From Deltaproteobacteria bacterium (GTDB lineage Bacteria; UBA10199; SPLOWO2-01-44-7): a DNA stretch of 64,000 bases. Location: positions 1,124-65,123 of the forward strand of contig JACQMB010000145.1 in assembly GCA_016203765.1 (NCBI GenBank). Direction: 5' to 3'. Numbering within the stretch: the stretch's first letter is position 1; every line of letters starts with the position of its first letter. The position numbers were made by a program, and so were the translations under genes. This document shows positions 4,520 through 54,446 of this stretch, piece after piece. The notes under the pieces were generated by a model, which saw only the letters and a list, made by a program, of their open reading frames with translations, made no database searches and was not told the origin of the DNA.

Positions 4520-5501
4520 AGTCGCAGTCGTCGGCACGGGCAGTATGGGCTTGCGTCATCTGTCCCTTTTAAAAGAAATAAAAGGGGTTATGCCGATCGC
4601 CATTCCGAAAAGAAATGACCGGAGGGTTGAACTGAATTCACAGGGATTTCAAACAGCCGCTTCCCTAAAACAGGCAGCCGAGGAAGGAACCAATCTGGCC
4701 ATTATTGCTTCCAACACCGGCCAGCATGCCGCGGATGCCCTCGAAGCGCTGGAATGCGGGATGGATCTTTTGGTGGAAAAACCGTTAAGTGTGGATGCCG
4801 AAAGCGCCCGGAGCGTTTACGAAGGTTCTAAGAGAAGGAATAAAAAATTGTTTGTCGGTTGCGTATTGCGTTGTTCGACGTCCCTCCAAACCTTCCGGGA
4901 ATGGCTTCCTAGGATCGGCAAGGTCTATGCCGTGACAGTCGAATGCCAATCTTTTTTGCCCACTTGGAGACCGAACCATCCCTATCGGCAATCCTATTCG
5001 GCCAAAACGGAAGAGGGGGGGGTGTTGCGCGATTTGATTCATGAAATTGATTACGCCACCTGGATTTTTGGGTTTCCGGAAAAGATCCAAGCGCACTTGA
5101 AAAATACCGGCCGCCTCTCCATTGAGGCTGAGGAATTCGCCCGGCTTTGGTGGGAAACAAAAGGGGGTGTCTCCGTTTCCGTGTGCCTCGATTATTTATC
5201 CAAAATTCCCAGAAGGCATGTGACCGCTTTCGGGGAAAAAGGAAATTTGGAATGGGATGGTCTGGTTCGCAAAACATCTGTTGCCATCTCGGATTATCCA
5301 AAAGAAGAGAGGGTGGAGCCGGACTTGTCCGCGATATACAAAACGCAGTTGGAAGAGTGGCTTGAGGCTTGCCGAACGCAGAATCGCGCGACTTGGTTGG
5401 CCACCGGCCTGGAAGGGATCCGGGTCTTGAGCATTTGTGATGCCGCTCGCTTGGCCTCCGAAACAAGGCGGGAGGAAACCGTCTCTTATTTGCACGGATG
5501 A
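4494..5501 (+). CDS. Gfo/Idh/MocA family oxidoreductase
   Basis: Motifs are KVAVVGTGSMGLRHL (Rossmann) and LLVEKPLS (EKP motif). The start is ambiguous (TTG 4479 or ATG 4494), and either one overlaps the upstream gene. Confidence 0.8.
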   Translation: MGTFSNPYKVAVVGTGSMGLRHLSLLKEIKGVMPIAIPKRNDRRVELNSQGFQTAASLKQAAEEGTNLAIIASNTGQHAADALEALECGMDLLVEKPLSVDAESARSVYEGSKRRNKKLFVGCVLRCSTSLQTFREWLPRIGKVYAVTVECQSFLPTWRPNHPYRQSYSAKTEEGGVLRDLIHEIDYATWIFGFPEKIQAHLKNTGRLSIEAEEFARLWWETKGGVSVSVCLDYLSKIPRRHVTAFGEKGNLEWDGLVRKTSVAISDYPKEERVEPDLSAIYKTQLEEWLEACRTQNRATWLATGLEGIRVLSICDAARLASETRREETVSYLHG

Positions 5502-6232
5502 GAAAAAATCCAAAAATGTTGGCTTTGATCCCCGCCCGTGGTGGTTCCAAGGGACTCCCCGGGAAAAATATCCTCCCCTTTTCCGGTCATCCTTTGATCG
5601 CTCATTCCATTTTTATGGCAAAAATGTGTCCTTTGATATCACGCATTGTTATCAGTACCGATGATCCCAAAATCGCGGAGATAGCCAGTGACTACGGTGC
5701 GGAGGTGCCATTTTTGCGGCCCAGGGAATTGGCAAAAGATGAAACACCGATGTGGCCGGTGGTGCGCCATGCCTTGCAAACCGTGGAGGGGAAAAATGGC
5801 GAACAATATGAGTATTTATTATTGCTCGATCCCACCTCTCCCGGCCGGATTCCGGAAGACGTTGAAAAGGCTTTTGAGCGTTTGCAAGCGGAAAAAAGGG
5901 CCGACGGCATTATCGGCGTTTCACGGCCCTCCTTCAATCCCATTTGGCATTGTGTGGTTGAAAAAGAGGGCTGGATGTCACGCCTGATGGAAGAGGGTCA
6001 CCGTTATCACCGCCGTCAAGACGTTCCATCGGTCTATCGGATCAACGCCTCCCTTTATATTTGGAGAAGAGATTTTATTTACGCCTGTGAAAGCGAATGG
6101 ACCAAAAAGGGGCGTTTTTTGATTCATGAAATTCCGGAATCGAGGGCCATTCACATTGATGATCTTCATGAATTTAAAGTGGCCGAACTGTTAGTGAAAA
6201 AAAATCTGATCATCCTCCCCTGGATTCGGTAA
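5498..6232 (+). CDS. neuA: Acylneuraminate cytidylyltransferase family (CMP-nonulosonate synthetase)
   Basis: Motifs are LALIPARGGSKGLPGKN, ISTDD and LLLDPTSPGR. The ATG at 5498 overlaps the upstream stop (ATGA); an alternative ATG lies at 5516. Confidence 0.85.
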   Translation: MRKNPKMLALIPARGGSKGLPGKNILPFSGHPLIAHSIFMAKMCPLISRIVISTDDPKIAEIASDYGAEVPFLRPRELAKDETPMWPVVRHALQTVEGKNGEQYEYLLLLDPTSPGRIPEDVEKAFERLQAEKRADGIIGVSRPSFNPIWHCVVEKEGWMSRLMEEGHRYHRRQDVPSVYRINASLYIWRRDFIYACESEWTKKGRFLIHEIPESRAIHIDDLHEFKVAELLVKKNLIILPWIR

Positions 6233-6233
6233 T

Positions 6234-6992
6234 ATGAAAACATTAAATGAACTCATGCGGTTGGATGGCAGACGGGCCCTCGTCATGGGAGGAAGCGGAC
6301 ATATTGGCCGGGTCGCTTGCGAAACACTCAAAGAATTGGGAGCCAGGGTTGCCGTTTTGGACGCGCAGCCGTCTGACGGATTATTTTTCCCTTGTGATTT
6401 AAAAGACGAGGCGGCGACAAGAAAAACAATCCGTTATGCCATTCATGAATTGAAAGGACTGGATATTTTAATTCATCTCGCGGCTTACGTCGGGACCACA
6501 AAAATTCCAGGCTGGGCCGTTCCCTTTGAGAAACAAACCGTTCAGGCCTGGGAGGAAGCGTTAAAAGTGAATCTCACATCCGTTTTTGTCGGCGTTCAGG
6601 AAAGCCGGGAGGATCTTCAAACATCCGCGCATGGTTCCGTTGTTTTGTTTTCGTCTATTTACGGAATAATTGGCCCGGACTTCCGGCTTTATGAGGGGAC
6701 GGAAATGGCCAACCCCGCCGCCTACAACGCTTCCAAAGGGGGCATTTTGCAGATGACAAAATATTTTGCGACTTTGTTGGCGCCCAAGGTGCGCGTGAAT
6801 GCCATTTCACCCGGCGGCATCCATCGAAATCAGCCCAATGCTTTCGTGGAGAGATATCGGCAAAAAACGCCTCTGGGCCGCATGGGAAGAGAGGAAGATT
6901 TGAAAGGGGCCGTCGCCTATTTAGTCGGTGATTTGTCGTGTTATGTGACTGGCCACAATTTGGTGATTGATGGAGGATTCAGCATATGGTGA
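6234..6992 (+). CDS. Short-chain dehydrogenase/reductase (SDR)
   Basis: It has the cofactor loop ALVMGGSGHIGRV, the catalytic YNASKGG and a C-terminal GHNLVIDGG. Confidence 0.8.
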   Translation: MKTLNELMRLDGRRALVMGGSGHIGRVACETLKELGARVAVLDAQPSDGLFFPCDLKDEAATRKTIRYAIHELKGLDILIHLAAYVGTTKIPGWAVPFEKQTVQAWEEALKVNLTSVFVGVQESREDLQTSAHGSVVLFSSIYGIIGPDFRLYEGTEMANPAAYNASKGGILQMTKYFATLLAPKVRVNAISPGGIHRNQPNAFVERYRQKTPLGRMGREEDLKGAVAYLVGDLSCYVTGHNLVIDGGFSIW

Positions 6993-8038
6993 AAGAAGTC
7001 GTCATTCAAAATCGAAAAATGGGCCAGGGTCATCCCTGTTTTATCATTGCCGAAGCCGGAGTGAACCATAACGGCGACGTTAAAATGGCCAAAAAATTGA
7101 TTGATGCGGCCGCCCATGCCGGCGCCGACGCGGTCAAATTTCAGACTTTTAGGGCCGATAACGTGGTGACATCGGATGCACCTAAGGCCCAATACCAGAT
7201 TCGAGCGACCGGGCGTCAGGAATCCCAACTGGAGATGCTGAAAAAATTGGAGCTTCCTTTGGAGGCCTTTCAGGAATTGCAGAATTATTGTCTCCAAAAA
7301 GGGATTCTTTTCATGTCCACCCCTTTCGACGAAGATTGCGCCGATTTTTTGGATGAGATGGGCATGCCGGTTTTCAAAATCCCTTCGGGGGAGTTGACAA
7401 ACGCCTTTTTTGTCGCTCACGTGGCCGAGAAAAAAAAACCACTGATTGTTTCAACCGGCATGGCAACGCTCGAAGAAGTGGACGCGGCTGTCAGAATAAT
7501 TTTGGATGCCAATAATACAAAATTCGTTTTACTGCACTGCGTGAGCAGTTACCCTGCCGATCCCGGAGATGTGAATCTCCGCGCGATGGATGCGCTACGA
7601 AAATTTTTCAAAGTGCCTGTCGGATTTTCAGACCATACGCGGGGGATCGAGGTAGCCTTGGCGGCAGTAGCCATGGGAGCTTGCGTTTTGGAGAAACATT
7701 TTACCCTGTGCAGAAGGATGTCGGGTCCTGATCATCAGGTTTCTCTTGAGCCGGATGAGTTGATGCAATTAGTAAAAGGAATCCGAACCGTCGAAATGGC
7801 TTTTGGGAACGGATTAAAACAACCCTGTGAAGCAGAGATCGATACTGCCAAAGTGGCCAGAAGGAGCCTTGTTGCGAACAGAGATATTGCAAAGGGGTCC
7901 CGCCTCGCATTGGAATGGGTAGCTATCAAGAGGCCGGGTACCGGTTTGGCTCCAGCCATTCTTCCCAGGCTGGTGGGACTTCAGGTGAAATCGGATATCC
8001 AAGCCGGCTCTTTTTTGACTTTGGAGATGTTTGAATAA
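6986..8038 (+). CDS. neuB: N-acetylneuraminate synthase family enzyme (NeuB/PseI/LegI-type nonulosonate synthase)
   Basis: It has PCFIIAEAGVNHNGDVKMAKKLIDAAAHAGADAVKFQTF, STPFDE and a C-terminal SAF-like segment (IAKGSRLALEWVAIKRPG). Confidence 0.9.
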   Translation: MVKEVVIQNRKMGQGHPCFIIAEAGVNHNGDVKMAKKLIDAAAHAGADAVKFQTFRADNVVTSDAPKAQYQIRATGRQESQLEMLKKLELPLEAFQELQNYCLQKGILFMSTPFDEDCADFLDEMGMPVFKIPSGELTNAFFVAHVAEKKKPLIVSTGMATLEEVDAAVRIILDANNTKFVLLHCVSSYPADPGDVNLRAMDALRKFFKVPVGFSDHTRGIEVALAAVAMGACVLEKHFTLCRRMSGPDHQVSLEPDELMQLVKGIRTVEMAFGNGLKQPCEAEIDTAKVARRSLVANRDIAKGSRLALEWVAIKRPGTGLAPAILPRLVGLQVKSDIQAGSFLTLEMFE

Positions 8039-10052: not shown

Positions 10053-11123
10053 ATGTATACCCGAACGGAAACATTTTGTATTTCAAAAAACGCCACAACT
10101 CAGGAGGCCATTGCCAAGATGAATGAGGGACGGCTCGGCATTGTGTTGGTGGTGGACGAGGACCGGCGGTTGATTGGAACCATTACCGATGGGGATATTC
10201 GGCGGGCGGTACTTGCCAAATTCCCCCTCTCCCATCTTGTTACGGCCTTGCTGGAGCAAAAGACCGGCACCGAATATGCCAAACCGCTTTATGCTTTGGC
10301 CGGACAAACAAAAAGCGAATATCTAAAAATTTTGAGACAAAATGCCCTTTCACATCTTCCAATTATCAATGGAGAAAAACAGGTGGTGGCCCTTCTGACC
10401 TCGGATGAATTTATGGTTGATTCCCTTGCCTCCATCGATGCCGTGGTGATGGCCGGGGGGAGAGGAATCAGGCTCATGCCTTTGACGGGGGATATTCCCA
10501 AACCGATGCTTCCGGTCGGCGAGAAACCGTTGTTGGAAATTATCATCCATAAGCTTAGAACCGCTGGCATTCAAAAAATAAATGTCACAACACACCACAA
10601 ACCGGAAAAGATCAAAGAATATTTCGGCGACGGCCGGGATTTCGGCATTGATTTGAATTATGTTTCCGAGGAACGTCCGTTGGGGACGGCCGGGGCTCTG
10701 GGGCTTTTGGAAAACATTCAGAAGACCACGTTGGTCATCAATGGTGATATTTTAACCGATGTCGATTTTAAGGCGATGTTTCAATTTCACCGGGAGCATA
10801 ACGCCGATTTGACGGTTGCCGTTCGCGTCTGCGAACTGGAGGTTCCTTTTGGGGTGGTTGAATGTCAGGGGGCTCAGGTGAAGGCGATCCAGGAAAAACC
10901 CAAAGTGAGTTTGATGGTCAACGCGGGCATTTATTTATTGGAACCACACGTTTATTCTTATATCCCCGCTGGCGAGCAATACCACATGACCGACCTGATT
11001 CAGCATCTGATTTCCAAAAAAATCAATGTCATCAGCTTTCCCATCCACGAATATTGGATTGATATCGGGGCCCATGCTGAATACGAAAAAGCCCAAAAAG
11101 AGATCGAGCGGTTTAATTTCTAA
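10053..11123 (+). CDS. CBS-domain sugar-phosphate nucleotidyltransferase (PtmE-like)
   Basis: It has tandem CBS segments (GIVLVVDEDRRLIGTITDGDIRRAV; LPIINGEKQVVALLTSDEF) followed by an NTP-transferase signature (VVMAGGRGIRLMPLTGDIPKPMLPVGEKPLLE). Confidence 0.85.
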   Translation: MYTRTETFCISKNATTQEAIAKMNEGRLGIVLVVDEDRRLIGTITDGDIRRAVLAKFPLSHLVTALLEQKTGTEYAKPLYALAGQTKSEYLKILRQNALSHLPIINGEKQVVALLTSDEFMVDSLASIDAVVMAGGRGIRLMPLTGDIPKPMLPVGEKPLLEIIIHKLRTAGIQKINVTTHHKPEKIKEYFGDGRDFGIDLNYVSEERPLGTAGALGLLENIQKTTLVINGDILTDVDFKAMFQFHREHNADLTVAVRVCELEVPFGVVECQGAQVKAIQEKPKVSLMVNAGIYLLEPHVYSYIPAGEQYHMTDLIQHLISKKINVISFPIHEYWIDIGAHAEYEKAQKEIERFNF

Positions 11124-11126
11124 TTT

Positions 11127-12290
11127 ATGATATCCCAAAAGATTTTGTTGTGTGAACCGTATCTTTCCGGCAGGGAATGGAAGTATGTTAAGGAGTGCCT
11201 CGATTCGGGGTGGATTGCCACTTCGGGTTCCTTCCTTGGCCGCTTTGAAAAAGAGGTGGCCCAATGCGTCGGCTCCGCCCATGCGGTGGGGGTGGCCACC
11301 GGCACGGCGGCCTTGCACCTGGCGTTATTGGCGGCGGGGGTTCAGCCGGAAGAGGAGGTTTTGGTCCCCACCATCACTTTTATTGCTCCAGTGAATGCCA
11401 TCCGCTACGCCGGGGCCCATCCGGTTTTGATGGATGTGGACCCCCTAAACTGGCAATTGGATGTGGGGAAGGTGGAGCGATTTTTGCGGGAGGCCTGTTC
11501 TTTTCATGATGGAATTGTAACAAACAAGAATACCCATCGGCGTGTCAAAGCCATTTTGGCCGTCCATCTTCTGGGCCTATGCTGCCCCATGGATCGTTTG
11601 GTTCCTCTGGCCAAAGAGTTTCAGCTGAAACTCATCGAGGATGCGGCGGAAGGGCTGGGCGTTCGTTATCGGGGCAGGCATGTGGGGACCTTTGGCGATA
11701 TCGGCACGTTGAGTTTTAACGGGAACAAACTGGTGAGCGCCGGATCGGGCGGAATGGTCCTGACGCAAAAAAGGGATTTGGCTGAAAGGGTACGCTATTT
11801 GGCGACCCAGGCGAAGGATAATCCGGATGAATTTTTTCACGGGGCTGTTGGTTTTAATTACCGCCTGACCAATCTTCACGCCGCGGTTGGTTTGGCCCAG
11901 ATGGAGGAGCTGGAGGAAAGAATTTCCAAGAAGCGCCGAATCGCCGCCTTTTACGAGAAAAGATTGGGGGAAATTCCGGGAGTATCTCTCATGCCCCAAA
12001 TTGCCCACTGTGAGCCGACCTATTGGCTTTATACCATTTTGCTTGCCAAAGGAGAAAGGCGAAAGGAAGTTTTGAAGGCTTTGCATGCGGCCGGCATTAT
12101 GGCCCGGCCTCTCTTTCATCCGATCCATGGCCTCCCCCCTTATCAAGGGACCCAGACTTTTTGCATTGAGCATGCGGAGTCCATTTATGCAAGGGCGGTT
12201 TGTCTTCCTTCCAGTTTGGGTTTGGATCAAGCAGCCCTGGAGGCAGTTGTTGCCTGTTTGGAAAAAGCGTTAATACCATGTCGATATTAA
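11127..12290 (+). CDS. DegT/DnrJ/EryC1/StrS family sugar aminotransferase (PseC/LegC/PglE-like)
   Basis: Motifs are SGWIATSGSFLGRFEKEVA, GVATGTAALHLAL and the PLP-lysine region SFNGNKLVSAGSGG. Confidence 0.9.
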   Translation: MISQKILLCEPYLSGREWKYVKECLDSGWIATSGSFLGRFEKEVAQCVGSAHAVGVATGTAALHLALLAAGVQPEEEVLVPTITFIAPVNAIRYAGAHPVLMDVDPLNWQLDVGKVERFLREACSFHDGIVTNKNTHRRVKAILAVHLLGLCCPMDRLVPLAKEFQLKLIEDAAEGLGVRYRGRHVGTFGDIGTLSFNGNKLVSAGSGGMVLTQKRDLAERVRYLATQAKDNPDEFFHGAVGFNYRLTNLHAAVGLAQMEELEERISKKRRIAAFYEKRLGEIPGVSLMPQIAHCEPTYWLYTILLAKGERRKEVLKALHAAGIMARPLFHPIHGLPPYQGTQTFCIEHAESIYARAVCLPSSLGLDQAALEAVVACLEKALIPCRY

Positions 12291-12928
12291 CTCAAACTAA
12301 AATTTTCTGTGTTATCTTGGGGGGCGGCGGTCATGCCCGCGTTGTGGTTGACTGTTTGAAAAGCTTGGGTGCGGCTCATCCTTGCGCGGTTCTCGATCAA
12401 GATCGCTCCCTTTGGGGGAAGGAGGTTTTGGGTGTTCCAATCCGTGGAGGACTCGAACTTCTGCCCAAATTGAAAGCAGAGGGGGCAACCTATTTTGTGC
12501 CGGCTGTCGGAGGGGTGGGGGATAACAACCCCCGCCGACGCATTTTTGATGCTGGTTTACAACACGGTTTGACGGCACTGACGCTTATCCACCCCTCGGC
12601 AACGGTTTCGCCCCATGCCCAGATCGGCCAAGGGACGGTCATTTTTGCGGGTGCCATTATCAATGCGGGGGTGATCATCGGCGATAATTGCATCATCAAC
12701 ACCGGCGCCATTATCGATCACGATTGCCGGATCGGGGATCATGTCCATATTGCGCCAGGCGCTGTTCTTTCCGGGGAAGTTTGTGTGGCACGGAGCGCCC
12801 ATCTCGGGACCGGAGCGAGCGTTATACAGGGCATTCATATCGGGGAGGAGGCTATCGTGGGGGCCGGCGGTGTCGTGGTCCGTAATATCTCTCCAAGGTC
12901 TGTTGTAAAGGGAGTCCCCGCGAAGTGA
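12278..12928 (+). CDS. Hexapeptide-repeat sugar N-acetyltransferase (PglD/NeuD family)
   Basis: I used the internal ATG at 12278, which overlaps the upstream stop region. It has the NeuD-type N-domain ILGGGGHARVVVDCL and left-handed beta-helix repeats IGDNCIINTGAIIDHDCRIGDHVHIAPGAVLSGEV. Confidence 0.85.
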   Translation: MSILTQTKIFCVILGGGGHARVVVDCLKSLGAAHPCAVLDQDRSLWGKEVLGVPIRGGLELLPKLKAEGATYFVPAVGGVGDNNPRRRIFDAGLQHGLTALTLIHPSATVSPHAQIGQGTVIFAGAIINAGVIIGDNCIINTGAIIDHDCRIGDHVHIAPGAVLSGEVCVARSAHLGTGASVIQGIHIGEEAIVGAGGVVVRNISPRSVVKGVPAK

Positions 12929-14015: not shown

Positions 14016-14933
14016 ATGACCAAACCAAGGGTTCTGATTACCGGTGTCAGCGGTCTGTTGGGGAGTAACCTGGCCTGGTTGTATCGAGACCGTTATTCCG
14101 TTTTGGGCCTTTACCGCCGTCATCCGGTTTCATGGCCCGGCGTTCGGACCCTCCGGCAGGACCTTCTGGAAATTTTGAGCTTGAAAAAATGCGTTCATGA
14201 TTTTCGTCCGGATATTCTGATTCATTGTGCCGCGCTGACCGATGTGGATGCCTGTGAGCGGAACAAACAGGAGGCGGAACAAGCCAATATCGAGGCGACC
14301 CGAAAGGTGGTGGATTGTTTGAACGGCTTGCCCACGCGGCTGATCCACATATCGACCGACTCTGTTTTTGACGGTGAGAAGGGAAATTACTCGGAGACGG
14401 ACCCGGTTCATCCGGTCAATCATTATGGCTGGACAAAATGGAAGGCGGAAACGGAGTCGTTAAAACGGAAAGGGACCTTGGTGTTCAGAACGACCGTTTT
14501 CGGATGGAACGTTCAGGAAAAGGAGAGCCTGGGGGAATGGGTTTTGCATCGGATGATGCGCAAGGAAAAGATTAACGGATTTAGCGACGTTGTTTTTTCT
14601 CCCCTTTACACCATGGAGTTGGGAAGGCTGATGGAAAAAACTTGGCAAAAGGGGCTGGCCGGTCTCTATCACTGCGCCGGATCGAACGCCTGCTCCAAAT
14701 ATGATTTCGCCGTTCAACTTGCCCGTGTGTTTCATCTGGATGAAACAGCCGTGAATTCGATCTCGGTGGATGCCCTTGCCCTGCCGGCCAGGAGGCCCAA
14801 GAATCTTTCGCTGAAAACATCTAAGTTAACGGAATCATTAGGAAATTCATTGCCAAGCGTTCAGCGATCGATTCAATCCTTTTTTGATGATTTTGAGCGC
14901 GGCCTCCCCCGGAAATTAAAAGGACTTGCATGA
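14016..14933 (+). CDS. RmlD-like NAD(P)-dependent sugar reductase (dTDP-4-dehydrorhamnose reductase family)
   Basis: Motifs are VLITGVSGLLGSNL, the catalytic YGWTKWKAE and HISTDSVFDG. The start could be ATG 14016 or ATG 13998; the ORF-track start at 13941 is probably too long. Confidence 0.75.
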   Translation: MTKPRVLITGVSGLLGSNLAWLYRDRYSVLGLYRRHPVSWPGVRTLRQDLLEILSLKKCVHDFRPDILIHCAALTDVDACERNKQEAEQANIEATRKVVDCLNGLPTRLIHISTDSVFDGEKGNYSETDPVHPVNHYGWTKWKAETESLKRKGTLVFRTTVFGWNVQEKESLGEWVLHRMMRKEKINGFSDVVFSPLYTMELGRLMEKTWQKGLAGLYHCAGSNACSKYDFAVQLARVFHLDETAVNSISVDALALPARRPKNLSLKTSKLTESLGNSLPSVQRSIQSFFDDFERGLPRKLKGLA

Positions 14934-16432
14934 AAGCACTGAGCCGCCAACAACTCGACGCCCTCTTTCGTGAAATCCGCGGGCGCTATCCCCGCCTGGC
15001 CGTTTTGGCCATTCCCTGGATTTTTTCCACGATGTGGTCCTATCCTTTAAAGCCGTCTCCCGAACATGTTCAACCCTTCCCGATTTTCGTTGCCATCTTG
15101 TTTCGGGTTCCCTGGCTGGCGCTGCGCGCCATCGCGTTAAGCGGGCGTATCCTATGGCTTCGCCTTTCCTTTCGGAATGCCCTGCGCGATTATCGTTCCC
15201 GATCGTTTGAGGGGCTGGCCAAGACCTGGGCTTTTTCCATGGAAAATTCCGGGGGGGACCGAGATTTTTATTTGGGGGATTTGGCGGAACAGCTCCGCTC
15301 CAGGAATGTTCGGGTGTTGACGTTGTATGATTACGGAACGAATAAAAAAGGATGGGGGAAGAGACAAAACGGGCCGCGGCTACCGGAGCTGGCTCTTCTT
15401 TCGTTCCGGTCCGTATTGAAGATGTTGGGGGAACAATGCCGGGCGGCGCTCCTTCTCTATTTCAAGGGGTTCGGGGAGAGGGATAAAACGTTGCGGGGTT
15501 TGATCTGGCTGGCCGGCCGGGATTGCCTCCGCGCGATGACTCTGCGCAACGGGCTCTTTTATTGGATCGGCAGGGAGGCGGCCCGCCGATGGAAACCCGT
15601 TTTTTTTATAACCTTGTATGAAGGGAATGCCTGGGAAAAGTGTCTGGCCTTGGGCCTTCGCTCCGTCGATTCCCCCTGCAAACTGGTGGGCTATCAGCAT
15701 ACGGTCATTATGCCTCACGCGTATGAACTGCAACGGCCGTCCAATTCCCTCGCGGGGATCAAACCTCCGGAATTGATCCTGAGTGTCGGCACGCGGCCGA
15801 TGCAATGGTTGCAGGCAAGTCATCAGCCGTTCGGAGTCCGTTTCATTCCCTTTGGGACCTTTCGTTATTTCAATCCGGACGAAAAGAGGGGAATCCCCCG
15901 TCCGGACGTCAAAACACTTTTGGTTCTGCCGGAAGGGATTGTCTCCGAGATGATTTTTCTGTTCGACGCGGCCCTCGATTTGGCGTCCCTCTTGCCCGAT
16001 TACCGGATTTTATTTCGTTGTCATCCCGCGATCCCTTTCGAAAAAGTCCGTTCGCGGTTAAAGCGGGATCTGGGGGACTGTCCCAATGTGTCCCTCTCCG
16101 GGGCGGGCCGCATTGAGGAGGATTTCCTGGCCGCTTCCATGATTCTTTACCGCGGTTCTTCGGCCATTCTCTATGCCATTTTAAGCGGGCTGAAACCGTT
16201 TTATTTGCGCAAAAATTCCGAGGAAGAGGTGATTGATCCGCTTTTTGATCTGGCCTCCTGGCGTCAGCGGGCCGATTCGGTTTCGGAATTGGCGGGCCAG
16301 ATGAGGAGCTATTCGGAAAGCGCTTTGTCCGAAATCCAAGATGATTGGCACAAGGCGAATCGGTTTGTCGGGGAATATGTACAGCCGGTCGGACCCCGGT
16401 CTTTTGACCGTTTTTTGGAGGCGCTCCAATGA
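14930..16432 (+). CDS. Hypothetical protein, possible GT-B-like / ulosonate-transferase-like
   Basis: It starts with an ATGA overlap and has a hydrophobic N-terminal segment. The C-terminal region KTLLVLPEG...ILFRCHPAIP...ILYRGSSAILYAILSG resembles the protein at 60256. I recognise no named family with confidence. Confidence 0.55.
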   Translation: MKALSRQQLDALFREIRGRYPRLAVLAIPWIFSTMWSYPLKPSPEHVQPFPIFVAILFRVPWLALRAIALSGRILWLRLSFRNALRDYRSRSFEGLAKTWAFSMENSGGDRDFYLGDLAEQLRSRNVRVLTLYDYGTNKKGWGKRQNGPRLPELALLSFRSVLKMLGEQCRAALLLYFKGFGERDKTLRGLIWLAGRDCLRAMTLRNGLFYWIGREAARRWKPVFFITLYEGNAWEKCLALGLRSVDSPCKLVGYQHTVIMPHAYELQRPSNSLAGIKPPELILSVGTRPMQWLQASHQPFGVRFIPFGTFRYFNPDEKRGIPRPDVKTLLVLPEGIVSEMIFLFDAALDLASLLPDYRILFRCHPAIPFEKVRSRLKRDLGDCPNVSLSGAGRIEEDFLAASMILYRGSSAILYAILSGLKPFYLRKNSEEEVIDPLFDLASWRQRADSVSELAGQMRSYSESALSEIQDDWHKANRFVGEYVQPVGPRSFDRFLEALQ

Positions 16433-17430
16433 GATGCCTCGTTTTTGGCTGCGGGTATATGGGGAAAATCCGCGCGGCGGTGTTGAAAAATCATCCGGAC
16501 GTCACCCAGGTAAAAATTTACGATCCCTATGTGAATCCGGACCGTGAACCCATGGCGCCGGACCTCCTGGTCCCTTCGGAAATCCCGTGGAAAGATTTTG
16601 ACGCGGTTTTTGTCTGTACCCCCAACAACGTCAGCGCCAAACTGGCGATCGAGGGGCTTAAAAATTGCGGGCATGTCTTTTGTGAGAAACCTCCGGCCCG
16701 GAATTACGAGGAGCTGTGCGCGGTGAGGGAGGCCGCCCGGGCGCGTCCGGATCATACTTTGGTTTTCGGTTTTAACCACCGTTACCACCCGCTGGTTCAG
16801 GCGGCCAAAGACCTGGTGGGCGAGGGGGGGCTTGGCGAGGTCCTCTATCTCCGGGGGACCTACGGCAAATCGGGGGGAAAAAATTACCGTCAAAGCTGGC
16901 GCAACCAAAAGGAAATTTCCGGAGGGGGGATACTGCTGGATCAGGGCATTCATATGCTCGACCTCTTTCAATATTTTCTGGGCCCGCTGAAGCTGGTGAA
17001 CAGTCTGTTGCAAGATTCTTTTTGGAAATGCGGCGTGGAAGACAATGTCTTTGTTTTGTTGCGGTCGGCCAGGGGCGCCCCCGTTTTTCTCCATTCTTCC
17101 GCCACGCTGTGGAAACACACTTTTACCTTTGAAATCGGGTGTGAAAAGGGTTATCTCAAGGCCAACGGACTTCTCTCGCAAACCGGGAGCTATGGCCGCG
17201 AACAACTCGTAATCGGCCGAAGGCAGTTTGAGGATGAGGCTTTGGCCCTTGGCAATCCCCGGGAAGAGATCGTCTATTTCGACCGTGACGATTCCTGGCG
17301 ATTGGAGGTCAACGAATTTTTGTCCGCCGTCAAGGAAAAGAGAAAGGCCACGCACGGGACTTTGGAAGAAGCCCTGCAAGTGATGGCCTTGATCCGGGAT
17401 ATCTATGCAATCGATTCAAACCTGCTTTAA
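16429..17430 (+). CDS. Gfo/Idh/MocA family oxidoreductase
   Basis: It starts with an ATGA overlap. Motifs are MRCLVFGCGYMGKIRA (Rossmann) and VFCEKPPA (EKP motif). The 356-aa antisense ORF 16309-17379 is a shadow of this gene. Confidence 0.85.
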   Translation: MRCLVFGCGYMGKIRAAVLKNHPDVTQVKIYDPYVNPDREPMAPDLLVPSEIPWKDFDAVFVCTPNNVSAKLAIEGLKNCGHVFCEKPPARNYEELCAVREAARARPDHTLVFGFNHRYHPLVQAAKDLVGEGGLGEVLYLRGTYGKSGGKNYRQSWRNQKEISGGGILLDQGIHMLDLFQYFLGPLKLVNSLLQDSFWKCGVEDNVFVLLRSARGAPVFLHSSATLWKHTFTFEIGCEKGYLKANGLLSQTGSYGREQLVIGRRQFEDEALALGNPREEIVYFDRDDSWRLEVNEFLSAVKEKRKATHGTLEEALQVMALIRDIYAIDSNLL

Positions 17431-20495: not shown

Positions 20496-20503
20496 AAAAT
20501 CGC

Positions 20504-23004: not shown

Positions 23005-23007
23005 GCG

Positions 23008-23721: not shown

Positions 23722-23779
23722 GGAGCATGATTTAGATCATGTTGACTCTTGTTTGCATTAGTTCTAGCGGTGACCGGTT

Positions 23780-49453: not shown

Positions 49454-50037
49454 CGGGTCTTGGCGAAAATCATGATGTTTTGAACTCCCCAAAAATGCAT
49501 CGTCTCGGCCTGAACCACGTCGCAATGATCCCTCACGATGGACAACTCCTCCTCTTTGCTTCGGATAAAATTTCCGCGATCGAGGGCGGTCAGCATTCTC
49601 CCCCAGAGATTGATCCGGTTTTGCCGGAGGGGGTCGGTGAGGATGATGTGTCCGGAGACGATTCGGGTAAGGGAGGCCAGGAGGTTGTGAAAGTCCGCTT
49701 TCGGCAAATGATGGGATAAATCGATCAACAGGGCGGCGTCGAATTTTTTTTCCGCGAGATCAATCTGTTGCAAGGCGCGGCATTTAAATTGTCTTTTGGG
49801 AGCGCGGTATTTCCGGGAGGCGCTTTGGATGTAACCGGGGTCCATGTCGATCCCCAAATAATCCCCGTCGGTTATTTGTGAATACTGCCCCGTGCCGCAG
49901 CCGACATCCAGCACGGAGGCGCAAGGGGAGATGCCGAATTCCCGGATCAGGGCAAACCGCCGTTGATAGAGGTTGCCGAACAGGTCCAGCATCCTTCGAA
50001 ACTGGCTCCAAACAAAAACATTTTCCAGGATATGCAT
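49450..50037 (-). CDS. Class I SAM-dependent methyltransferase
   Basis: I prefer the ATG at 50037, which overlaps the upstream stop as TGATG. Motif I is VLDVGCGTGQYSQ. Confidence 0.8.
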   Translation of the reverse strand: MHILENVFVWSQFRRMLDLFGNLYQRRFALIREFGISPCASVLDVGCGTGQYSQITDGDYLGIDMDPGYIQSASRKYRAPKRQFKCRALQQIDLAEKKFDAALLIDLSHHLPKADFHNLLASLTRIVSGHIILTDPLRQNRINLWGRMLTALDRGNFIRSKEEELSIVRDHCDVVQAETMHFWGVQNIMIFAKTR

Positions 50038-51254
50038 CAGCGCAAGACCCTCGCGTACGCTTTTTTGAGGTAAGCCTCCGGGGAGGCCGCTATGTAAGCA
50101 CAACATTCCGTTTCAGTCATCCTGCCGTTTAACAATCGATGCAGGAGATCGATGTAAACCTCCCCTTCGAAATGGCGGTCCGATCGGAGCAGGGTGACCG
50201 TCGACGCCGACTCATCCGCCAGAACCCCTTCCCAGACGAAATCTTCCTTCGGAACCTGAAAGGCATCGGGGTGGACCTTGAAGCGCGGCGCGATCTTCTC
50301 GGAGGAGGCCGGAATATCTGAGTTGATGGCCATCAGCCACAATTTTTGAATGAGGGGGGATTGGGAGTCGATGGCCGCCTCGATGGCGCGCAATTCTTCC
50401 ACGAGCCAGGCCATTTTAAAATCACTCAGCCAATGGGCCAATTTCCGCTGGGGAAAATGTTTCAGGAGGGAACGGTTGCTGTTGCGATCCGCCTCCTCCC
50501 AAAAAAAATCCCATTGTTCGGAAAGATGAAGGCGCTCAACCGAGTCGGCCTTTTCCTCCTCAAACAGCATCCCCTCAAAATCGACCCCCCCCGGAAACAA
50601 CAAGGCCGATTCGGCGTCACGCCAGATCAGTTTAAGGCCCGGCCCCTTTAAAATTCGAGTCCAGGCGGCCGGCGGCTCTTCACGGTGGAGATAGGCGAGG
50701 TAGGGGACCGTCAGATTATCCGTTATTGGAATCGTCAAAATCGGCGACCGGTGGGTGCCCTGGCAGAAAAAAGGGGACTTGGGGATGATGCCTTGAACGG
50801 TTTCATCATAGCGTTCGGGATGAATGAAGATGGCCTGAAGGCCGTGTTCCACCAGCGTTTCGATTTGCTGGTTGCGGATCATCAACTCGTTTTGCAGAAA
50901 GGCGGGGACCGTGTTTTTTAAATGTTCTTTGATCGTTTTCAAACCGTATTCCAAATTGAGCTGAAATCCTTCGTGATTGCGCAGGGGGGACAAGTCATGC
51001 GCGAAAGGGCGGGCCAGGATTTGAAAAATTTCGGGGTGGGCGTTGATTAAATCCAGGGCCTCGGGATTGAAAACACTCAGGTCCTTGATGGTCGCTCCGG
51101 TCAAACCGATATTGACCTTGCGCCGGTTCCGAACATAGTTATTCAACAGGCGGCAAAGGCGGGAATTTTTTCCCCCTTCCAAAGAGCGAAGCCATTTATT
51201 GGAGGGAAGGCAGGAGGCGTCGGCGTTCAAATTGACGATATCCATCAGGGCCAT
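50037..51254 (-). CDS. Hypothetical protein
   Basis: This 405-aa ORF has normal composition and is co-linear with flanking genes. I could not identify any diagnostic motif. Confidence 0.5.
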   Translation of the reverse strand: MALMDIVNLNADASCLPSNKWLRSLEGGKNSRLCRLLNNYVRNRRKVNIGLTGATIKDLSVFNPEALDLINAHPEIFQILARPFAHDLSPLRNHEGFQLNLEYGLKTIKEHLKNTVPAFLQNELMIRNQQIETLVEHGLQAIFIHPERYDETVQGIIPKSPFFCQGTHRSPILTIPITDNLTVPYLAYLHREEPPAAWTRILKGPGLKLIWRDAESALLFPGGVDFEGMLFEEEKADSVERLHLSEQWDFFWEEADRNSNRSLLKHFPQRKLAHWLSDFKMAWLVEELRAIEAAIDSQSPLIQKLWLMAINSDIPASSEKIAPRFKVHPDAFQVPKEDFVWEGVLADESASTVTLLRSDRHFEGEVYIDLLHRLLNGRMTETECCAYIAASPEAYLKKAYARVLR

Positions 51255-51258
51255 GATA

Positions 51259-52002
51259 TCACCACCATTCCCCGCCGTTCACGTTCAGCGTCTCTGCCGT
51301 GATAAAACCCGCTTCCGGCGAGGCCAAAAAGAGGGCCGCCTCGGCAATTTCTTCATAAGTCCCCAGACGACCCAAAAGGATGTTGCGCAGACGGGTTTCG
51401 CGCAGGGACGCCGGCATGGTCTGATCGGTCATTGCCGACGCGACGATACCCGGCGAAAGGCAATTGACCGTAATCTTGCGGGGGGCTGTAAAGCGAGCCA
51501 GGCAGTGGGTCAGCGCCATGACACCCGCCTTGGCCGCGGCATAGGCGGGGGAGCGGGGTCCCCCAAGCTGGCCCGAGACCGAACCGATATTAATGATGCG
51601 CCCCCCCTCCGGGATATGGGGGAGGGCGGCTTGACAGCAGAGGAATACGCCGGTCAGATTGACCGCCAAGACTTCGTTCCATTCCTCCAGTGTTTGTTTG
51701 TCGAAATCGTTGACCCGGTTCATTCCGGCGTTGTTCACCAAAATATCGATGGAGCCGAAGTGCCGGGCCGTCTCCGCAATCGCTTGTTTGATTTGATCGG
51801 GTTCGGAAACGTCGAGGGGAAGTAGTGCGGCCTCGCCCCCCTGATCGCAAATTTGGCGGACCACTTTTTCGGCCGCTTCTTTTTGCCGCCGGTAGGTAAC
51901 GGCAATTTTGGCCCCCTCACGGGCAAACGCCAAGGCAATGGCCCGCCCAATGCCGCGGCTGGATCCGGTAATGAGCGCGCTCTTGCCTTTTAATCGCTTC
52001 AC
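51259..52002 (-). CDS. Short-chain dehydrogenase/reductase (FabG-like SDR)
   Basis: The GTG start overlaps the upstream stop (GTGA). Motifs are SALITGSSRGIGRAIA, NNAG and YAAAKAG. Confidence 0.85.
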   Translation of the reverse strand: MKRLKGKSALITGSSRGIGRAIALAFAREGAKIAVTYRRQKEAAEKVVRQICDQGGEAALLPLDVSEPDQIKQAIAETARHFGSIDILVNNAGMNRVNDFDKQTLEEWNEVLAVNLTGVFLCCQAALPHIPEGGRIINIGSVSGQLGGPRSPAYAAAKAGVMALTHCLARFTAPRKITVNCLSPGIVASAMTDQTMPASLRETRLRNILLGRLGTYEEIAEAALFLASPEAGFITAETLNVNGGEWW

Positions 52003-52664
52003 GAGGGGACCTTCAAGCCTTTCTCGTCGAAGGCGGCATCAAACGCCGCCCGGTCTTCCTCGACCAGGGGAGAGGACAAAACCATCTGATAGACATCAAG
52101 GGGTGCGGTGACGATATCGGAACCCGCGGCGACGGCCTCCGACAAGTCGGCGGGGGTTTTGATCGAGGCGGCCAGAATTTTTGCCCGGGATCGGCGCTGG
52201 GCAAGAGACTCGATGACTTGTTTCCAATCATGGCCGGCCTGCCGCAGGCGCCCGCAGAATACCGATAGGACCATGTCGCCGTCAGGGAGATGATTCAAAA
52301 GGGCCATGGAGATCAAACCTTGGGCCGGGGACTTGACGATGGTCATGTTCAAGGGGATTTCCTTCAGCAGTTGCGAGGCCGCCTGGAGGCCTTCCATCGT
52401 TGTGGGGAGTTTCACGCGCACCCGCTTGTCCCAGGAGGCCAAAACCTTGGCCTGCGCGATCATCGCTTCGGCTCCGCCGGAGCGGACCTCCAAACTGACG
52501 TCCCAGCCCTTGTCCGCGATTTCCAACAGGGCCAGGGCGTGGGATTTATAATCGAGGGACTCTTTGGCCATCAAAACCGGATTAACGGTCACTCCCGAAA
52601 TGAAACCCCAGCTCCTCGCCGTGCGAATTTGCTCCAGATTGGCCGTGTCGACAAAAAACTTCAT
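51999..52664 (-). CDS. Transaldolase family protein, fructose-6-phosphate-aldolase (FSA/TalC)-like, divergent
   Basis: This 221-aa protein starts MKFFVDTANLEQIRTARSWGFISGVTVNP. The Schiff-base Lys region is RVKLPTT. The central region differs from my recollection of canonical FSA. Confidence 0.75.
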   Translation of the reverse strand: MKFFVDTANLEQIRTARSWGFISGVTVNPVLMAKESLDYKSHALALLEIADKGWDVSLEVRSGGAEAMIAQAKVLASWDKRVRVKLPTTMEGLQAASQLLKEIPLNMTIVKSPAQGLISMALLNHLPDGDMVLSVFCGRLRQAGHDWKQVIESLAQRRSRAKILAASIKTPADLSEAVAAGSDIVTAPLDVYQMVLSSPLVEEDRAAFDAAFDEKGLKVPS

Positions 52665-53689
52665 GGTTGTGAAACCCCCAGACGCTCCGCCAGATCTCTT
52701 AATTCAGCCCATGTCTTTTCGTCAAGCGGGATTCCGGTTTCCCTCCGAATCCGTTCGCTTCGGAATTCCGGCTCTCCGGGGAGGAGAACCTCTTCCACCC
52801 CCTTTGCCCGTTCGGCTTTTTTGATCGCTTTTTGCATCCGTTCCATGTCATCCAGGAAAGGGTCCAACCCCTCACGAAAAATTTTGGGGTCCAGGACAAT
52901 AAACAAAACCCCATTGCCGATGTCGCGGTCCGCGAAGGCGGGACTGCCGGCACCCGTCAAAAATCCCCCCAGGATTTCAATCATCAGGCTGAGGGCCGAC
53001 CCCTTATGCCGGCCGATCGGGAGGAGCGCGCCTCCGTCATAAAAATCGTCCGGGCTGGTGGTCTCCTCCCCCCGCCGATTGATAGCCGTCTCCTTTTCAA
53101 GCCGTTGACCGGTGTTTCTGGCGACCCTCACCTTGCCCTCGGTGGCGAGGCTCGTGGCCAGATCGATCAGAATCGGGTTGCCGTCGCGGGAGGGGGCGGC
53201 GCACGCGATGGGGTTTGTCCCGAAGACCCGTTGGATGGCTCCAAAGGGAGCGACATTCGGCGTGCAGCCGTTGCAAAAACCGACTCCCACCATCTTCGCC
53301 TCGGCCGCCTTCAAAACGTATTCTCCGACTCTTCCGATGTGATGGGTCCGTCGCAAGCCGACCACGCCGATGCCGGTTGACCGGGCTTTTTCCATCGCGA
53401 TTTCAATGCCGTAAACGGCGATGACTTGGCCGAACCCGTGATGGCCGTCGACCATGGCAAGGGAGGGATGATCGACGACCACCGTCGGCCCCGCCTTGGG
53501 GTCGAGCTCGCCTTTTTGAATGAAACCAACGTACTGGGCTACTCTCACCACGCCGTGGGAATCGATGCCCGCCAGGTTTGCCCCCACCAGGGACTCGCTC
53601 ACTCTTTGGGCGGCCTTAGGGGGGGCCCCCGCGGCTTGAAAAATCTTTCGGGCCAAATCGGTTAAGGCCGCGGCTTGAAAAATAGGCAC
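52661..53689 (-). CDS. Ldh_2 family (malate/L-lactate/sulfolactate dehydrogenase type 2) oxidoreductase
   Basis: I propose a GTG start at 53689, preceded by AAGGAG with a 7-nt spacer. Motifs are GIDSHGVVRVAQYV and HHIGRVGEY. The ORF-track start at 53821 would run through the upstream gene's 3' end. Confidence 0.8.
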   Translation of the reverse strand: MPIFQAAALTDLARKIFQAAGAPPKAAQRVSESLVGANLAGIDSHGVVRVAQYVGFIQKGELDPKAGPTVVVDHPSLAMVDGHHGFGQVIAVYGIEIAMEKARSTGIGVVGLRRTHHIGRVGEYVLKAAEAKMVGVGFCNGCTPNVAPFGAIQRVFGTNPIACAAPSRDGNPILIDLATSLATEGKVRVARNTGQRLEKETAINRRGEETTSPDDFYDGGALLPIGRHKGSALSLMIEILGGFLTGAGSPAFADRDIGNGVLFIVLDPKIFREGLDPFLDDMERMQKAIKKAERAKGVEEVLLPGEPEFRSERIRRETGIPLDEKTWAELRDLAERLGVSQP

Positions 53690-53693
53690 GTCT

Positions 53694-54446
53694 TCACTCC
53701 TTAATGTTTTTTTCAAAAGTTTTGCGCAGGTTGTTCCAATCGTTGACACGTTCCTGCGCCAAAGCGGCCGCCGCCGGGTGCGTATCGATGAAACGAATAA
53801 TAGCTTGCAATGGAAAACCACAGCCGGGGGAATAGAGGGTTTCCAATACCGCCTTGAAAAATTGAAAATCCTCGAGATAATCCATGGTCATGCGCAGCTC
53901 GGGCCGGCGGAGTTCTTCGGCGACGGGGACGCGCTCGACCCGGTATCGCTTGTTTTTTAAAAAATACAAATCCCAGCCGTGATCCGTTTTCCCCTGATGA
54001 TTCCGGTGGCAGGTCTCCAGGGCGGAGACCTTGACCGCGTAGGGGCTGGCGCCCAACGGAAGGTCGGGACAATAGAGAAAATCGGCCCCGGTCTTTTCGT
54101 ATTGATCAATCAGGAGATCGACGTGGCAAGGATCGACAAAGATATTGTCGCTCCCCACGGTAACGAGGAAATCGACCCCGTGGGCCTGGGCGCCATGGAG
54201 CATTCGTTCAATCAGATCCTCGACACTGCCTCGGTAGAGGGCAAGCCCTTCCGCGCGTGCCAGATCGGCCAAGACGTCGTCTTCCGCCAACGGGGTGGTG
54301 GCAAGGATAAAGCATTCCGTTTTTTTTGCGTTTTTGAGGCGCTCGATTTGATACGACAAAATAGGCCGTCCCATGACCTCCAGGAGCACTTTTCCGGGAA
54401 GACGGTAGGAGTTGGTGCGGGCATACGTCAGCAGACCTGTTTTCAT
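53694..54446 (-). CDS. SpsF-like cytidylyltransferase (CTP_transf_3 family)
   Basis: The ATG at 54446 overlaps the upstream stop (ATGA). Motifs are MKTGLLTYARTNSYRLPGKVLLEVMGRPILSYQIERL and ATT...DD. Confidence 0.8.
   Translation of the reverse strand: MKTGLLTYARTNSYRLPGKVLLEVMGRPILSYQIERLKNAKKTECFILATTPLAEDDVLADLARAEGLALYRGSVEDLIERMLHGAQAHGVDFLVTVGSDNIFVDPCHVDLLIDQYEKTGADFLYCPDLPLGASPYAVKVSALETCHRNHQGKTDHGWDLYFLKNKRYRVERVPVAEELRRPELRMTMDYLEDFQFFKAVLETLYSPGCGFPLQAIIRFIDTHPAAAALAQERVNDWNNLRKTFEKNIKE

Follow-up and report, generated by a model that had tools for sequence, protein, structure and literature searches.

A putative mosaic surface-glycan island with three cytidylyltransferase genes, placed beside a NeuB-type synthase, an HpcH-family aldolase and a transaldolase paralogue

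The sequence analysed, referred to as the window, is a 64-kb stretch of contig JACQMB010000145.1 (assembly GCA_016203765.1, Deltaproteobacteria bacterium). It carries three genes of the cytidylyltransferase family CTP_transf_3, each close to an enzyme predicted to form carbon-carbon bonds, and the three gene groups are called modules A, B and C below. An original prediction, made from the letters of the sequence, had paired the three cytidylyltransferases (CTs) with a NeuB-type synthase, an HpcH aldolase and an "FSA-like aldolase" and had proposed one glycan with up to three different acidic sugars activated with cytidine monophosphate (CMP), two of them made by non-canonical aldolases.

Sequence data and annotation

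Sixty long open reading frames of the window were translated and then scanned against Pfam. The CT subfamilies were assigned using match scores from NCBIfam and the Protein Data Bank (PDB). The metagenome-assembled genome (MAG) containing the window, G000, has a size of 1.47 Mb and is 68% complete. A census of 93 species genomes represented the phylum. Comparison loci were L004, L006/L013 and L014 for module B, which are four loci in three genomic contexts, and L007, L113, L114 and L115 for module C. L006/L013 is from the MAG Deltaproteobacteria bacterium RIFCSPHIGHO2_01_FULL_43_49, L014 is from another such MAG and L004 is a Logan contig.

Three cytidylyltransferases of different subfamilies

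All three predicted CTP_transf_3 genes were recovered above the Pfam gathering score (22.6 bits), and they are the sole members of this family in the incomplete MAG:

5498-6232, plus strand, CT1, NeuA/LegF/PseF-type CMP-nonulosonate synthetase (PF02348, 75 bits)
29286-30041, plus strand, CT2, KdsB/KpsU-like cytidylyltransferase (PF02348, 124.5 bits)
53694-54464, minus strand, CT3, SpsF-type cytidylyltransferase (PF02348, 61.2 bits)

For CT3, the likely start is the ATG at 54446, which gives a product of 250 amino acids (aa), as also found in the protein database. In a three-way alignment, the residues R14, S17 and L20-K23 of the N-terminal motif PAR..S.RLPGK are invariant. Identity to CT1 is 33% for CT2 and 17% for CT3. 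Because the three proteins share just 17-33% identity, they are, by their sequences, old family members and no recent duplicates.

The names NeuA-like, KdsB-like and SpsF-like were well chosen, as NCBIfam, PDB and database names place the three proteins in three different subfamilies. CT1 reaches 150.8 bits with the PseF model TIGR03584, which is under the cut-off of 205.7, and its best PDB match is the CMP-Neu5Ac synthetase 6ifd (125 bits). CT2 passes the KdsB subfamily model NF003952 (198.1 against a cut-off of 193) and fails the kdsB equivalogs TIGR00466 (120.5 against 155.2) and NF003948 (157.5 against 281); the best solved structure is the capsule enzyme KpsU, 1gq9 (123.5 bits). CT3 barely touches the KdsB models of NCBIfam. 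Its best PDB match is an uncharacterised "cytidylyltransferase", 6oew (73.9 bits), KdsB reaches just 23.9 bits, and its homologues are named SpsF in the source databases.

A housekeeping role for CT2 was considered and ruled out. In G000 and in two sister genomes with a completeness of 95% and 98%, no KdsA above the cut-off of 314 bits was found (best scores 117-132 bits), LpxC was not found and WaaA was not above its cut-off. Because KdsA, LpxC and WaaA are absent, CT2 is no housekeeping CMP-Kdo synthetase (Kdo, 3-deoxy-D-manno-octulosonic acid), and the lineage seems, from its gene content, to be without lipopolysaccharide (LPS). In its place, genes of the WecB, WecC, WecG/TagA and YfhO types are found in the island.

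Module B, a conserved cassette of HpcH aldolase and CT2

Around CT2, the following genes were annotated:

14930..16432, plus strand, unk500, a 500-aa protein of predicted GT-B fold and candidate transferase (no Pfam match)
16429..18361, plus strand, GFO/IDH/MocA sugar oxidoreductase and Methyltransf_23 methyltransferase (Pfam)
26419..27189, plus strand, HpcH/HpaI class II (metal-dependent) pyruvate aldolase (PF03328, 102.4 bits against a cut-off of 25)
27173..27778, plus strand, HAD-IA phosphatase (HAD_2, 64.5 bits), overlapping HpcH by 17 nt
27775-28539, plus strand, short-chain dehydrogenase/reductase (SDR) b1, D-mannonate oxidoreductase/KduD-like (Pfam, NCBIfam, start codons)
28542-29285, plus strand, SDR b2, glucose-1-dehydrogenase-like (Pfam, NCBIfam, start codons)
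30038..30982, plus strand, D-2-hydroxyacid dehydrogenase, phosphoglycerate dehydrogenase/glyoxylate-reductase-like (Pfam, NCBIfam), with a 4-nt overlap with CT2

The aldolase scores far under the equivalog cut-offs of HpaI, GarL and YfaU, and its best PDB matches are 3qz6, YfaU (2vws) and GarL (1dxe). The cassette subfamily shows no variation at residues R68, E146 and D172, which align with the solved HpaI, YfaU and GarL structures; we take them to be the catalytic positions of HpaI, i.e., the arginine and two acidic metal ligands. According to NCBIfam, SDR b1 resembles two enzymes acting on sugar acids, mannonate oxidoreductase and KduD. For unk500, weak matches to the "surface carbohydrate biosynthesis protein" models TIGR04326/TIGR04396 and no match to a CAZy family were obtained. 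Its AlphaFold2 (AF2) model has a mean confidence (pLDDT) of 93.3, and the top Foldseek matches are GT-B glycosyltransferases, UDP-GlcNAc 2-epimerases and TagF, with E-values of ~1e-8 to 1e-7 and template modelling (TM) scores of 0.4-0.6. The family of unk500 comprises 3008 representative clusters and has no assigned function.

The gene order unk500, GFO, Methyltransf_23, HpcH, SDR, SDR, CT2, 2-hydroxyacid dehydrogenase is the same in L006/L013. L014 has this order as well, with ~8 kb between Methyltransf_23 and HpcH and without a captured unk500, which would be expected outside the locus on its 5' side. L004 is rearranged, with no adjacent 2-hydroxyacid dehydrogenase; unk500 accompanies the cassette here as in L006/L013. 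Across L004, L006/L013 and L014, HpcH is 74-80% and CT2 57-62% identical to the window copies; this conservation of HpcH is unusually high. The related loci show 64-73% identity for the two SDRs, 50-74% for GFO and 49-51% for the methyltransferase, which had no tblastn match in L004, yet a Methyltransf_23 gene was called there by Pfam. In L005, L006/L013 and L014, the gene directly 3' of the CT2 homologue is again the 2-hydroxyacid dehydrogenase (57-60% identity).

Among the 93 genomes of the phylum, 11 contain HpcH-family genes, 14 in total. Eleven of these genes are located at most 10 kb from a CTP_transf_3 gene, six within 350 bp; the other three lie on contigs without any CTP_transf_3 match or in a genome with none, all in fragmented assemblies. 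Each of the two sister genomes also has an HpcH that is more distantly related (35-39% identity) and directly abuts another CTP_transf_3 gene (G081:C72:9090-10452 and G082:C8:49884-51231). A scan of a genome collection by HpcH alignment returned two loci only, the peptide patterns being very specific, and says little on distribution. The recurring order puts the predicted pairing of HpcH with CT2 above chance, and HpcH is no gene of central metabolism, being almost always CT-adjacent in the phylum. Module B is a conserved cassette. The islands of G081 and G082 carry four and five cytidylyltransferase genes, respectively, on a single contig.

In the window, a phosphonate block (18361-26425) lies exactly between Methyltransf_23 and HpcH. 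It contains an APS-kinase-like gene, a fusion of phosphoenolpyruvate (PEP) mutase with a nucleotidyltransferase, Ppd, a 446-aa HTH-cupin oxygenase, an NTP_transf_3 gene, a radical SAM/SPASM enzyme (SAM, S-adenosylmethionine) and an iron-dependent alcohol dehydrogenase (Fe-ADH). Because Methyltransf_23 and HpcH abut in L013, the block gives the impression of having been inserted into module B. In L004, part of the block is found in the same place, directly before HpcH. Ten genomes carrying HpcH, nine of them with a CT-linked copy, were examined for the PEP_mutase family, and six proved to lack it entirely; the pairing of HpcH with a CT is independent of PEP mutase. The PEP_mutase-family genes of the sister genomes are on other contigs, with one gene of ~290-300 aa each, as in G000 too, plus weaker matches in G082 and G080.

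At the periphery of the module, one further gene pair was found:

32033..33915, plus strand, HisC/CobD-like class I/II aminotransferase and methyltransferase (Pfam)

The aminotransferase (32033-33193) scores 230.7 bits with the hisC model, under the cut-off, and the L004 homologues of the two proteins show 70% and 63% identity. The aminotransferase and the HAD phosphatase (27173-27778) recall enzymes of Campylobacter for small phosphorylated amino-alcohols, which decorate capsule sugars as amides. By this analogy, the aminotransferase may make a side group, while the sugar itself would not be aminated.

Module C, a rare cassette with a transaldolase paralogue

The genes adjoining CT3 are as follows:

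50037..51254, minus strand, unk405, a 405-aa GH57-fold protein (Pfam GH57, 21.2 bits, just reaching the cut-off)
51259..52002, minus strand, FabG/glucose-1-dehydrogenase-like SDR (adh_short_C2, 232.6 bits; NF009466 and NF005559 above their cut-offs)
51999..52664, minus strand, TalC-type transaldolase paralogue (PF00923, 96.5 bits)
52661..53689, minus strand, Ldh_2-family 2-hydroxyacid/2-oxoacid dehydrogenase (PF02615, 359 bits), likely GTG start at 53689 behind AAGGAG
54443..56821, minus strand, SAM methyltransferase and radical SAM enzyme upstream of the module (Pfam), co-directional and tightly packed with CT3
61561..63293, plus strand, split transketolase, N and C halves (Pfam), possibly belonging with the SDR and GH57-fold protein

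As predicted, Pfam finds a TAL_FSA gene here, and NeuB and HpcH_HpaI genes at the other two places. The label "FSA-like aldolase" (FSA, fructose-6-phosphate aldolase) is nevertheless a misnomer. The island protein (Tal) has ~220 aa and the same fold as TalC-type transaldolases and the FSA of E. coli, and keeps the Schiff-base lysine together with the Asp, Asn, Thr and Arg residues of both. It aligns with TalC-type transaldolases from end to end and, compared to that of T. acidophilum (3s0c), retains D6, N28, E59, K85, N106, T108, F136 and R139, of which Glu59 and Phe136 correspond to Glu60 and Phe132. FSA has Gln and Tyr where transaldolases have Glu and Phe. The later arginine of the A-S-I-R-N-P segment is a lysine in Tal. 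Compared to solved structures, Tal scores ~63 bits with FSA and ~103 bits with TalC transaldolases. It differs from both groups in a 6-residue insertion, in falling below the cut-off of TIGR00875 (131.6 against 245.95 bits) and in being an island-specific extra copy. Because Glu, Phe and the Arg that binds phosphate, the catalytic residues of transaldolases, are present, a ketose phosphate rather than a keto acid is the expected product: from its sequence, Tal should move a dihydroxyacetone unit between sugar phosphates and make no keto acid. The predicted acidic sugar made by an FSA-like aldolase does not agree with these residues.

Like HpcH, Tal is no gene of central metabolism. A second, housekeeping-type Tal with 39% identity to the island protein is encoded on another contig of the MAG (G000:C25), and this type occurs in 88 of the 93 phylum genomes, none of the others of which has a close orthologue of the island Tal. 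Tal is 68-72% identical in L007 and L113. A metagenome scan by Tal alignment was dominated by housekeeping TalC (≤40% identity) and gave no new copy of the cassette.

The Ldh_2 protein reaches 267.8 bits with NF007504, under the cut-off of 336, and is present in L007, L113 and L114. The GH57-fold protein unk405 has a very small family, with 33 clusters in a set of 5.8 billion proteins, and was detected in G000 only among the 93 genomes. Its AF2 model (pLDDT 93.3) matches the GH57 4-alpha-glucanotransferase 1k1w best in Foldseek (E=5.5e-12, query TM score 0.56), followed by GH38 and CE4, so a barrel of the GH57/GH38/CE4 type is predicted. E123 and D213 are family-invariant, with numbering close to that of residues which we assume to be catalytic in the GH57 enzyme of T. 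litoralis. A function as lactonase linking an aldose dehydrogenase to Ldh_2 was considered and dropped, as the fold does not support it.

L007 is syntenic with module C, with identities of 63% for CT3, 55% for Ldh_2, 68% for Tal, 70% for SDR and 63% for unk405. L113 also has the CT3-Ldh_2-Tal-SDR-unk405 block, with a CT3 of 55% identity. The predicted pairing of Tal with CT3 is, by these two loci, beyond chance. L114 (unk405 homologue 56% identical) contains Ldh_2, a NeuA-type CT, SDR, unk405 and then a Maf-type gene, and L115 (41%) a NeuA-type CT, a split transketolase immediately upstream of SDR and unk405, and a NeuB gene 2.4 kb away. Tal is missing in both, and Ldh_2 in L115. The SDR adjoins the unk405 homologue in all four loci. 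Because L114 and L115 lack Tal and have a NeuA-type CT, the Tal-CT3 pairing holds only in close relatives. Since SDR, GH57-fold protein and CT are constant across L114 and L115, these three form the core of module C, and Tal is one among several interchangeable partners that transfer ketol units. Module C is a rare cassette. The gene following the GH57-fold protein in L114 (4585-5445) is MptE-like (DUF115/Maf-type), which hints that the product there is handed to a Maf-type nonulosonate transferase.

The window ends (61561-64000) with the split transketolase and a zinc-dependent alcohol dehydrogenase running off the edge. E1/transketolase-like genes were also seen near the cassettes of L006 and L114.

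Module A, a probable legionaminic-type pathway

CT1 is part of the following gene group:

4479..5501, plus strand, GFO/IDH/MocA oxidoreductase in PtmF-like position (Pfam GFO_IDH_MocA), its stop overlapping the CT1 start
6234..6992, plus strand, SDR in PtmA-like position (adh_short_C2, 133.8 bits)
6986..8038, plus strand, NeuB-type nonulosonate synthase, LegI/NeuB-like (PF03102, 329.7 bits, plus SAF domain)
10053..12928, plus strand, CBS-NTP_transferase (PtmE-like), DegT aminotransferase (LegC-like) and PglD-type N-acetyltransferase (LegH-like) (Pfam)

The synthase scores 462.4 bits with TIGR03569 (NeuB_NnaB), over the equivalog cut-off of 399.65, and is the single true NeuB of the MAG. Upstream of the module (1723-4519), HisF-like, HisH-like and WbuX genes are encoded, the last above its cut-off (327 bits); this is a known three-gene set for the conversion of an N-acetyl to an acetamidino group. 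The set of PtmF-, PtmB/LegF-, PtmA-, LegI-, PtmE-, LegC- and LegH-like genes corresponds, in close order, to the CMP-legionaminic acid pathway of C. jejuni, and by comparison with the Campylobacter ptm/leg genes, module A is probably an ordinary legionaminic-type pathway with amidino tailoring. It differs from the Ptm/Leg pathway of C. jejuni in having WbuX, HisH and HisF for amidino formation and in lacking an adjacent hydrolysing 2-epimerase. No NeuC/LegG-type gene adjoins NeuB in the window; where it would be expected, a 669-aa protein without family match is encoded (8040-10049), and the single Epimerase_2 gene (40332-41402) sits with WecC and resembles WecB. Homologues of PtmE, DegT and the protein unk672 are adjacent in L013 too.

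In this pathway, the PtmE-like nucleotidyltransferase, the DegT aminotransferase and the PglD-type acetyltransferase would provide a hexose precursor, NeuB would condense it with PEP and CT1 would form the CMP-nonulosonate. WbuX with the HisH/HisF-like proteins could add the acetamidino group.

Proposed pathways and alternative explanations

We consider it an evenly balanced proposition that the window is a mosaic surface-glycan island with three separate modules, each ending in a CMP-forming cytidylyltransferase. For module B, the sequence evidence makes a 3-deoxy-2-ulosonic acid built by a pyruvate aldolase the most likely product. HpcH would add pyruvate to an aldehyde or aldose, and this acceptor may be phosphorylated in the window copy, because a HAD phosphatase adjoins HpcH. 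The SDRs, the GFO oxidoreductase, the 2-hydroxyacid dehydrogenase and the methyltransferase would tailor the ulosonic acid, CT2 would form the CMP-sugar and unk500 is the likely transferase. The scheme would follow the logic of the Kdo pathway, with the PEP-dependent KdsA swapped for a pyruvate aldolase. Common to module B and the CMP-Kdo pathway (KdsD, KdsA, KdsC, KdsB) or KpsU are the KdsB/KpsU-like CT at the end, the HAD phosphatase beside the carbon-carbon bond-forming enzyme in the window and, should the aldol reaction occur, the chemical class of the product. In contrast to the CMP-Kdo pathway, the C-C step belongs to an HpcH/HpaI class II aldolase, tailoring enzymes of five genes (two SDRs, GFO, 2-hydroxyacid dehydrogenase, methyltransferase) are attached, the candidate transferase belongs to an uncharacterised GT-B-fold family, and G000 has neither KdsD nor WaaA nor lipid A genes. 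A literature search for HpcH/HpaI or pyruvate aldolases in a pathway with a cytidylyltransferase or KdsB found no paper except one incidental Halomonas genome report, so module B is apparently an unpublished, conserved variant of ulosonic-acid biosynthesis in organisms without Kdo and LPS.

In module C, the transaldolase paralogue could transfer a ketol unit of three carbons to a sugar phosphate, the FabG-like SDR, Ldh_2 and the GH57-fold protein could process the product or a side group, and CT3 could activate the resulting keto-acid sugar. The transaldolase would then act as chain-builder or side-chain supplier and not as the acid-forming synthase. That module C builds a third backbone in this way, by Tal extension, oxidation by SDR and Ldh_2 and activation by CT3, is a tentative reading to which we give a little less than even weight. 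No paper was found which pairs a transaldolase with a cytidylyltransferase and nonulosonic acids. Taken together, two undescribed CMP-sugar routes beside NeuB, namely HpcH leading to a new, non-Kdo 3-deoxy-2-ulosonic acid and transaldolase, SDR and Ldh_2 leading to a non-deoxy or higher-carbon 2-keto acid activated by an SpsF-type enzyme, are unlikely. The original prediction is partly supported: in essence it holds for two pairs, while it goes too far for the third, and a single glycan with all three acidic sugars is a conjecture.

Several observations weigh against the three-module reading. The chemistry of modules B and C is taken from family membership throughout; what the genomes provide for module B is the gene association and the missing Kdo pathway. 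The MAG is just 68% complete. The HAD phosphatase of module B was not seen in L004, L006 and L014, and the reading leaves unexplained the role of the 2-hydroxyacid dehydrogenase which is tightly coupled to CT2. For module C, no enzyme was identified which turns a ketose phosphate into a 2-keto acid, Tal is missing in L114 and a split transketolase is present in L115, and the CTs of both loci are NeuA-type and not SpsF-type. In addition, CT3 relatives outside the cassette (39-53% identity) adjoin NeuB, with or without a HAD phosphatase.

An alternative explanation has two backbones only. Here, module C would modify the nonulosonate made by NeuB, or activate it once modified, with CT3 as second CMP-nonulosonate synthetase. 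Tal or transketolase, SDR, Ldh_2, the GH57-fold protein and the methyltransferases would build or attach a side group, small and of polyhydroxy or acyl type, similar to the sfm genes of Shewanella. SpsF of B. subtilis is needed for the transfer of legionaminic acid (PMC7439481); since, furthermore, the CT3 relatives occur beside NeuB, CT1 and CT3 could both serve NeuB-derived nonulosonates. The NeuB gene 2.4 kb from the SDR-unk405 pair in L115, the Maf-type gene directly after unk405 in L114 and the three methyltransferases flanking module C fit this explanation, as does the flagellin-modification operon sfmABCDE of Shewanella oneidensis, in which a NeuB-domain protein is accompanied by a C-C-forming enzyme dependent on thiamine diphosphate (ThDP), an ATP-grasp enzyme and a FabG-like SDR (PMC3765264). 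The likeness to sfm is by enzyme class only: in both, nonulosonate genes are combined with genes for C-C bond formation, for a FabG-like SDR and for further tailoring. The sfm operon uses an IlvB-like ThDP enzyme and the ATP-grasp enzyme, and its five genes list neither Ldh_2 nor a cytidylyltransferase. In B. subtilis SpsF and the NeuB-HAD-cytidylyltransferase (Kdn-type) cassettes, the CT is SpsF-type as is CT3; unlike in these, no NeuB is near the cassette in the window, in L007 (8.8 kb) and in L113 (19 kb), and the neighbours of CT3 are Ldh_2, the transaldolase paralogue, the FabG-like SDR and the GH57-fold protein. A dedicated CT would also be unusual in a pure tailoring cassette when CT1 is already beside NeuB. 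The two-backbone explanation is a serious possibility, which we place clearly below even.

The three remaining explanations concern the aldolases. Module B could be a PEP-independent route to ordinary Kdo, from pyruvate and D-arabinose or arabinose-5-phosphate, for a polymer other than LPS, with CT2 as a true CMP-Kdo synthetase; the NF003952 match of CT2 and its closeness to KpsU, the genomes without KdsA and the HAD phosphatase beside the aldolase, which mimics KdsC, would agree with this. CT2 is, however, under both kdsB equivalogs, the attached SDRs, GFO oxidoreductase, 2-hydroxyacid dehydrogenase and methyltransferase would be superfluous for Kdo, the Pfam scan gave no KdsD-type isomerase in the window and the HAD phosphatase is not conserved, which makes this route improbable. 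Less probable still is a function of HpcH in the adjacent phosphonate pathway, in which pyruvate would be added to phosphonoacetaldehyde and CT2 would cytidylylate the phosphonate. Aldol chemistry on phosphonoacetaldehyde has a precedent in RhiG, which acts with oxaloacetate (PMC8942020), and the cupin oxygenase, NTP transferase and Fe-ADH genes directly precede HpcH in the window and in L004. The L006/L013 cassette has no phosphonate genes within 20 kb, though, the PEP_mutase-family genes of the sister genomes are ~290 aa long or weakly scoring and lie on other contigs, with such a copy in G000 too, and known phosphonate cytidylyltransferases are members of other nucleotidyltransferase families (PMC8942020). 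As a general explanation of HpcH, the phosphonate aldolase was ruled out by L013 and the six genomes with HpcH genes and no PEP_mutase-family gene. An incidental adjacency, with both aldolases serving central or catabolic metabolism inside a large island, was given almost no weight and is largely refuted. HpcH/HpaI and transaldolase families consist mostly of catabolic or pentose-phosphate enzymes, and HpcH and Tal fall under every equivalog cut-off; against this, gene order is kept in unrelated contigs, 11 of the 14 HpcH genes of the phylum are CT-linked, a separate housekeeping-type Tal exists and both cassettes contain genes that overlap at their start and stop codons.

Significance of the modules

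To our knowledge, the CMP-activated ulosonic acids characterised so far (Kdo, Kdn and the sialic, legionaminic and pseudaminic acids) are all made by PEP-dependent synthases of the KdsA or NeuB type. If the three-module reading is true for module B, the class II pyruvate aldolase cassette would be a third way to CMP-ulosonic acids, in organisms without Kdo and LPS, and would point to surface sugars which have yet to be identified chemically. If both new routes were true, three mechanistically different routes to CMP-sugar acids would be encoded in one locus. The three modules, lying side by side in the window, provide internal controls for expression and mass-spectrometry work. Two families without function, the ~500-aa GT-B-fold proteins (~3000 representative clusters) and the GH57-fold proteins (33 clusters), gain a testable context. 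In untargeted work, unassigned CMP-linked keto acids were reported from environmental bacteria (bioRxiv 10.64898/2026.04.20.719630). Cassettes such as modules B and C are candidate sources of these compounds.

Further features of the island

The G+C content is 38-44% at 56001-60000 (B12-radical SAM and AlgX-like genes) compared to 52-58% in the flanking modules; this drop suggests that the island was assembled as a mosaic of separately acquired pieces. In L113, homologues of the B12-radical SAM, AlgX-like and carbamoyltransferase genes surround the copy of module C.

Except for WecG (47705-48460), no Pfam-recognisable GT-A or GT-B glycosyltransferase is encoded in the window. The proteins without family match at 8040-10049, 14930-16432 and 60154-61524 may be stand-ins for glycosyltransferases. 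For these three, neither Pfam at E≤5 nor a sequence search of the PDB gave a match, and a BLASTP comparison among them gave nothing significant.

The enzyme counts of the original prediction were confirmed. Three of the six nucleotidyltransferase domains are the CTs; the others are in the CBS-NTP_transferase at 10053, the PEP_mutase-NTP_transf_3 fusion at 18858 and the NTP_transf_3 gene at 23008. Pfam finds the five SAM methyltransferases at 17405, 33187, 48539, 49450 and 54443, and the four radical SAM enzymes at 23780, 33861, 55070 and 56766, the last two of which are just outside the predicted range of 5498-54446.

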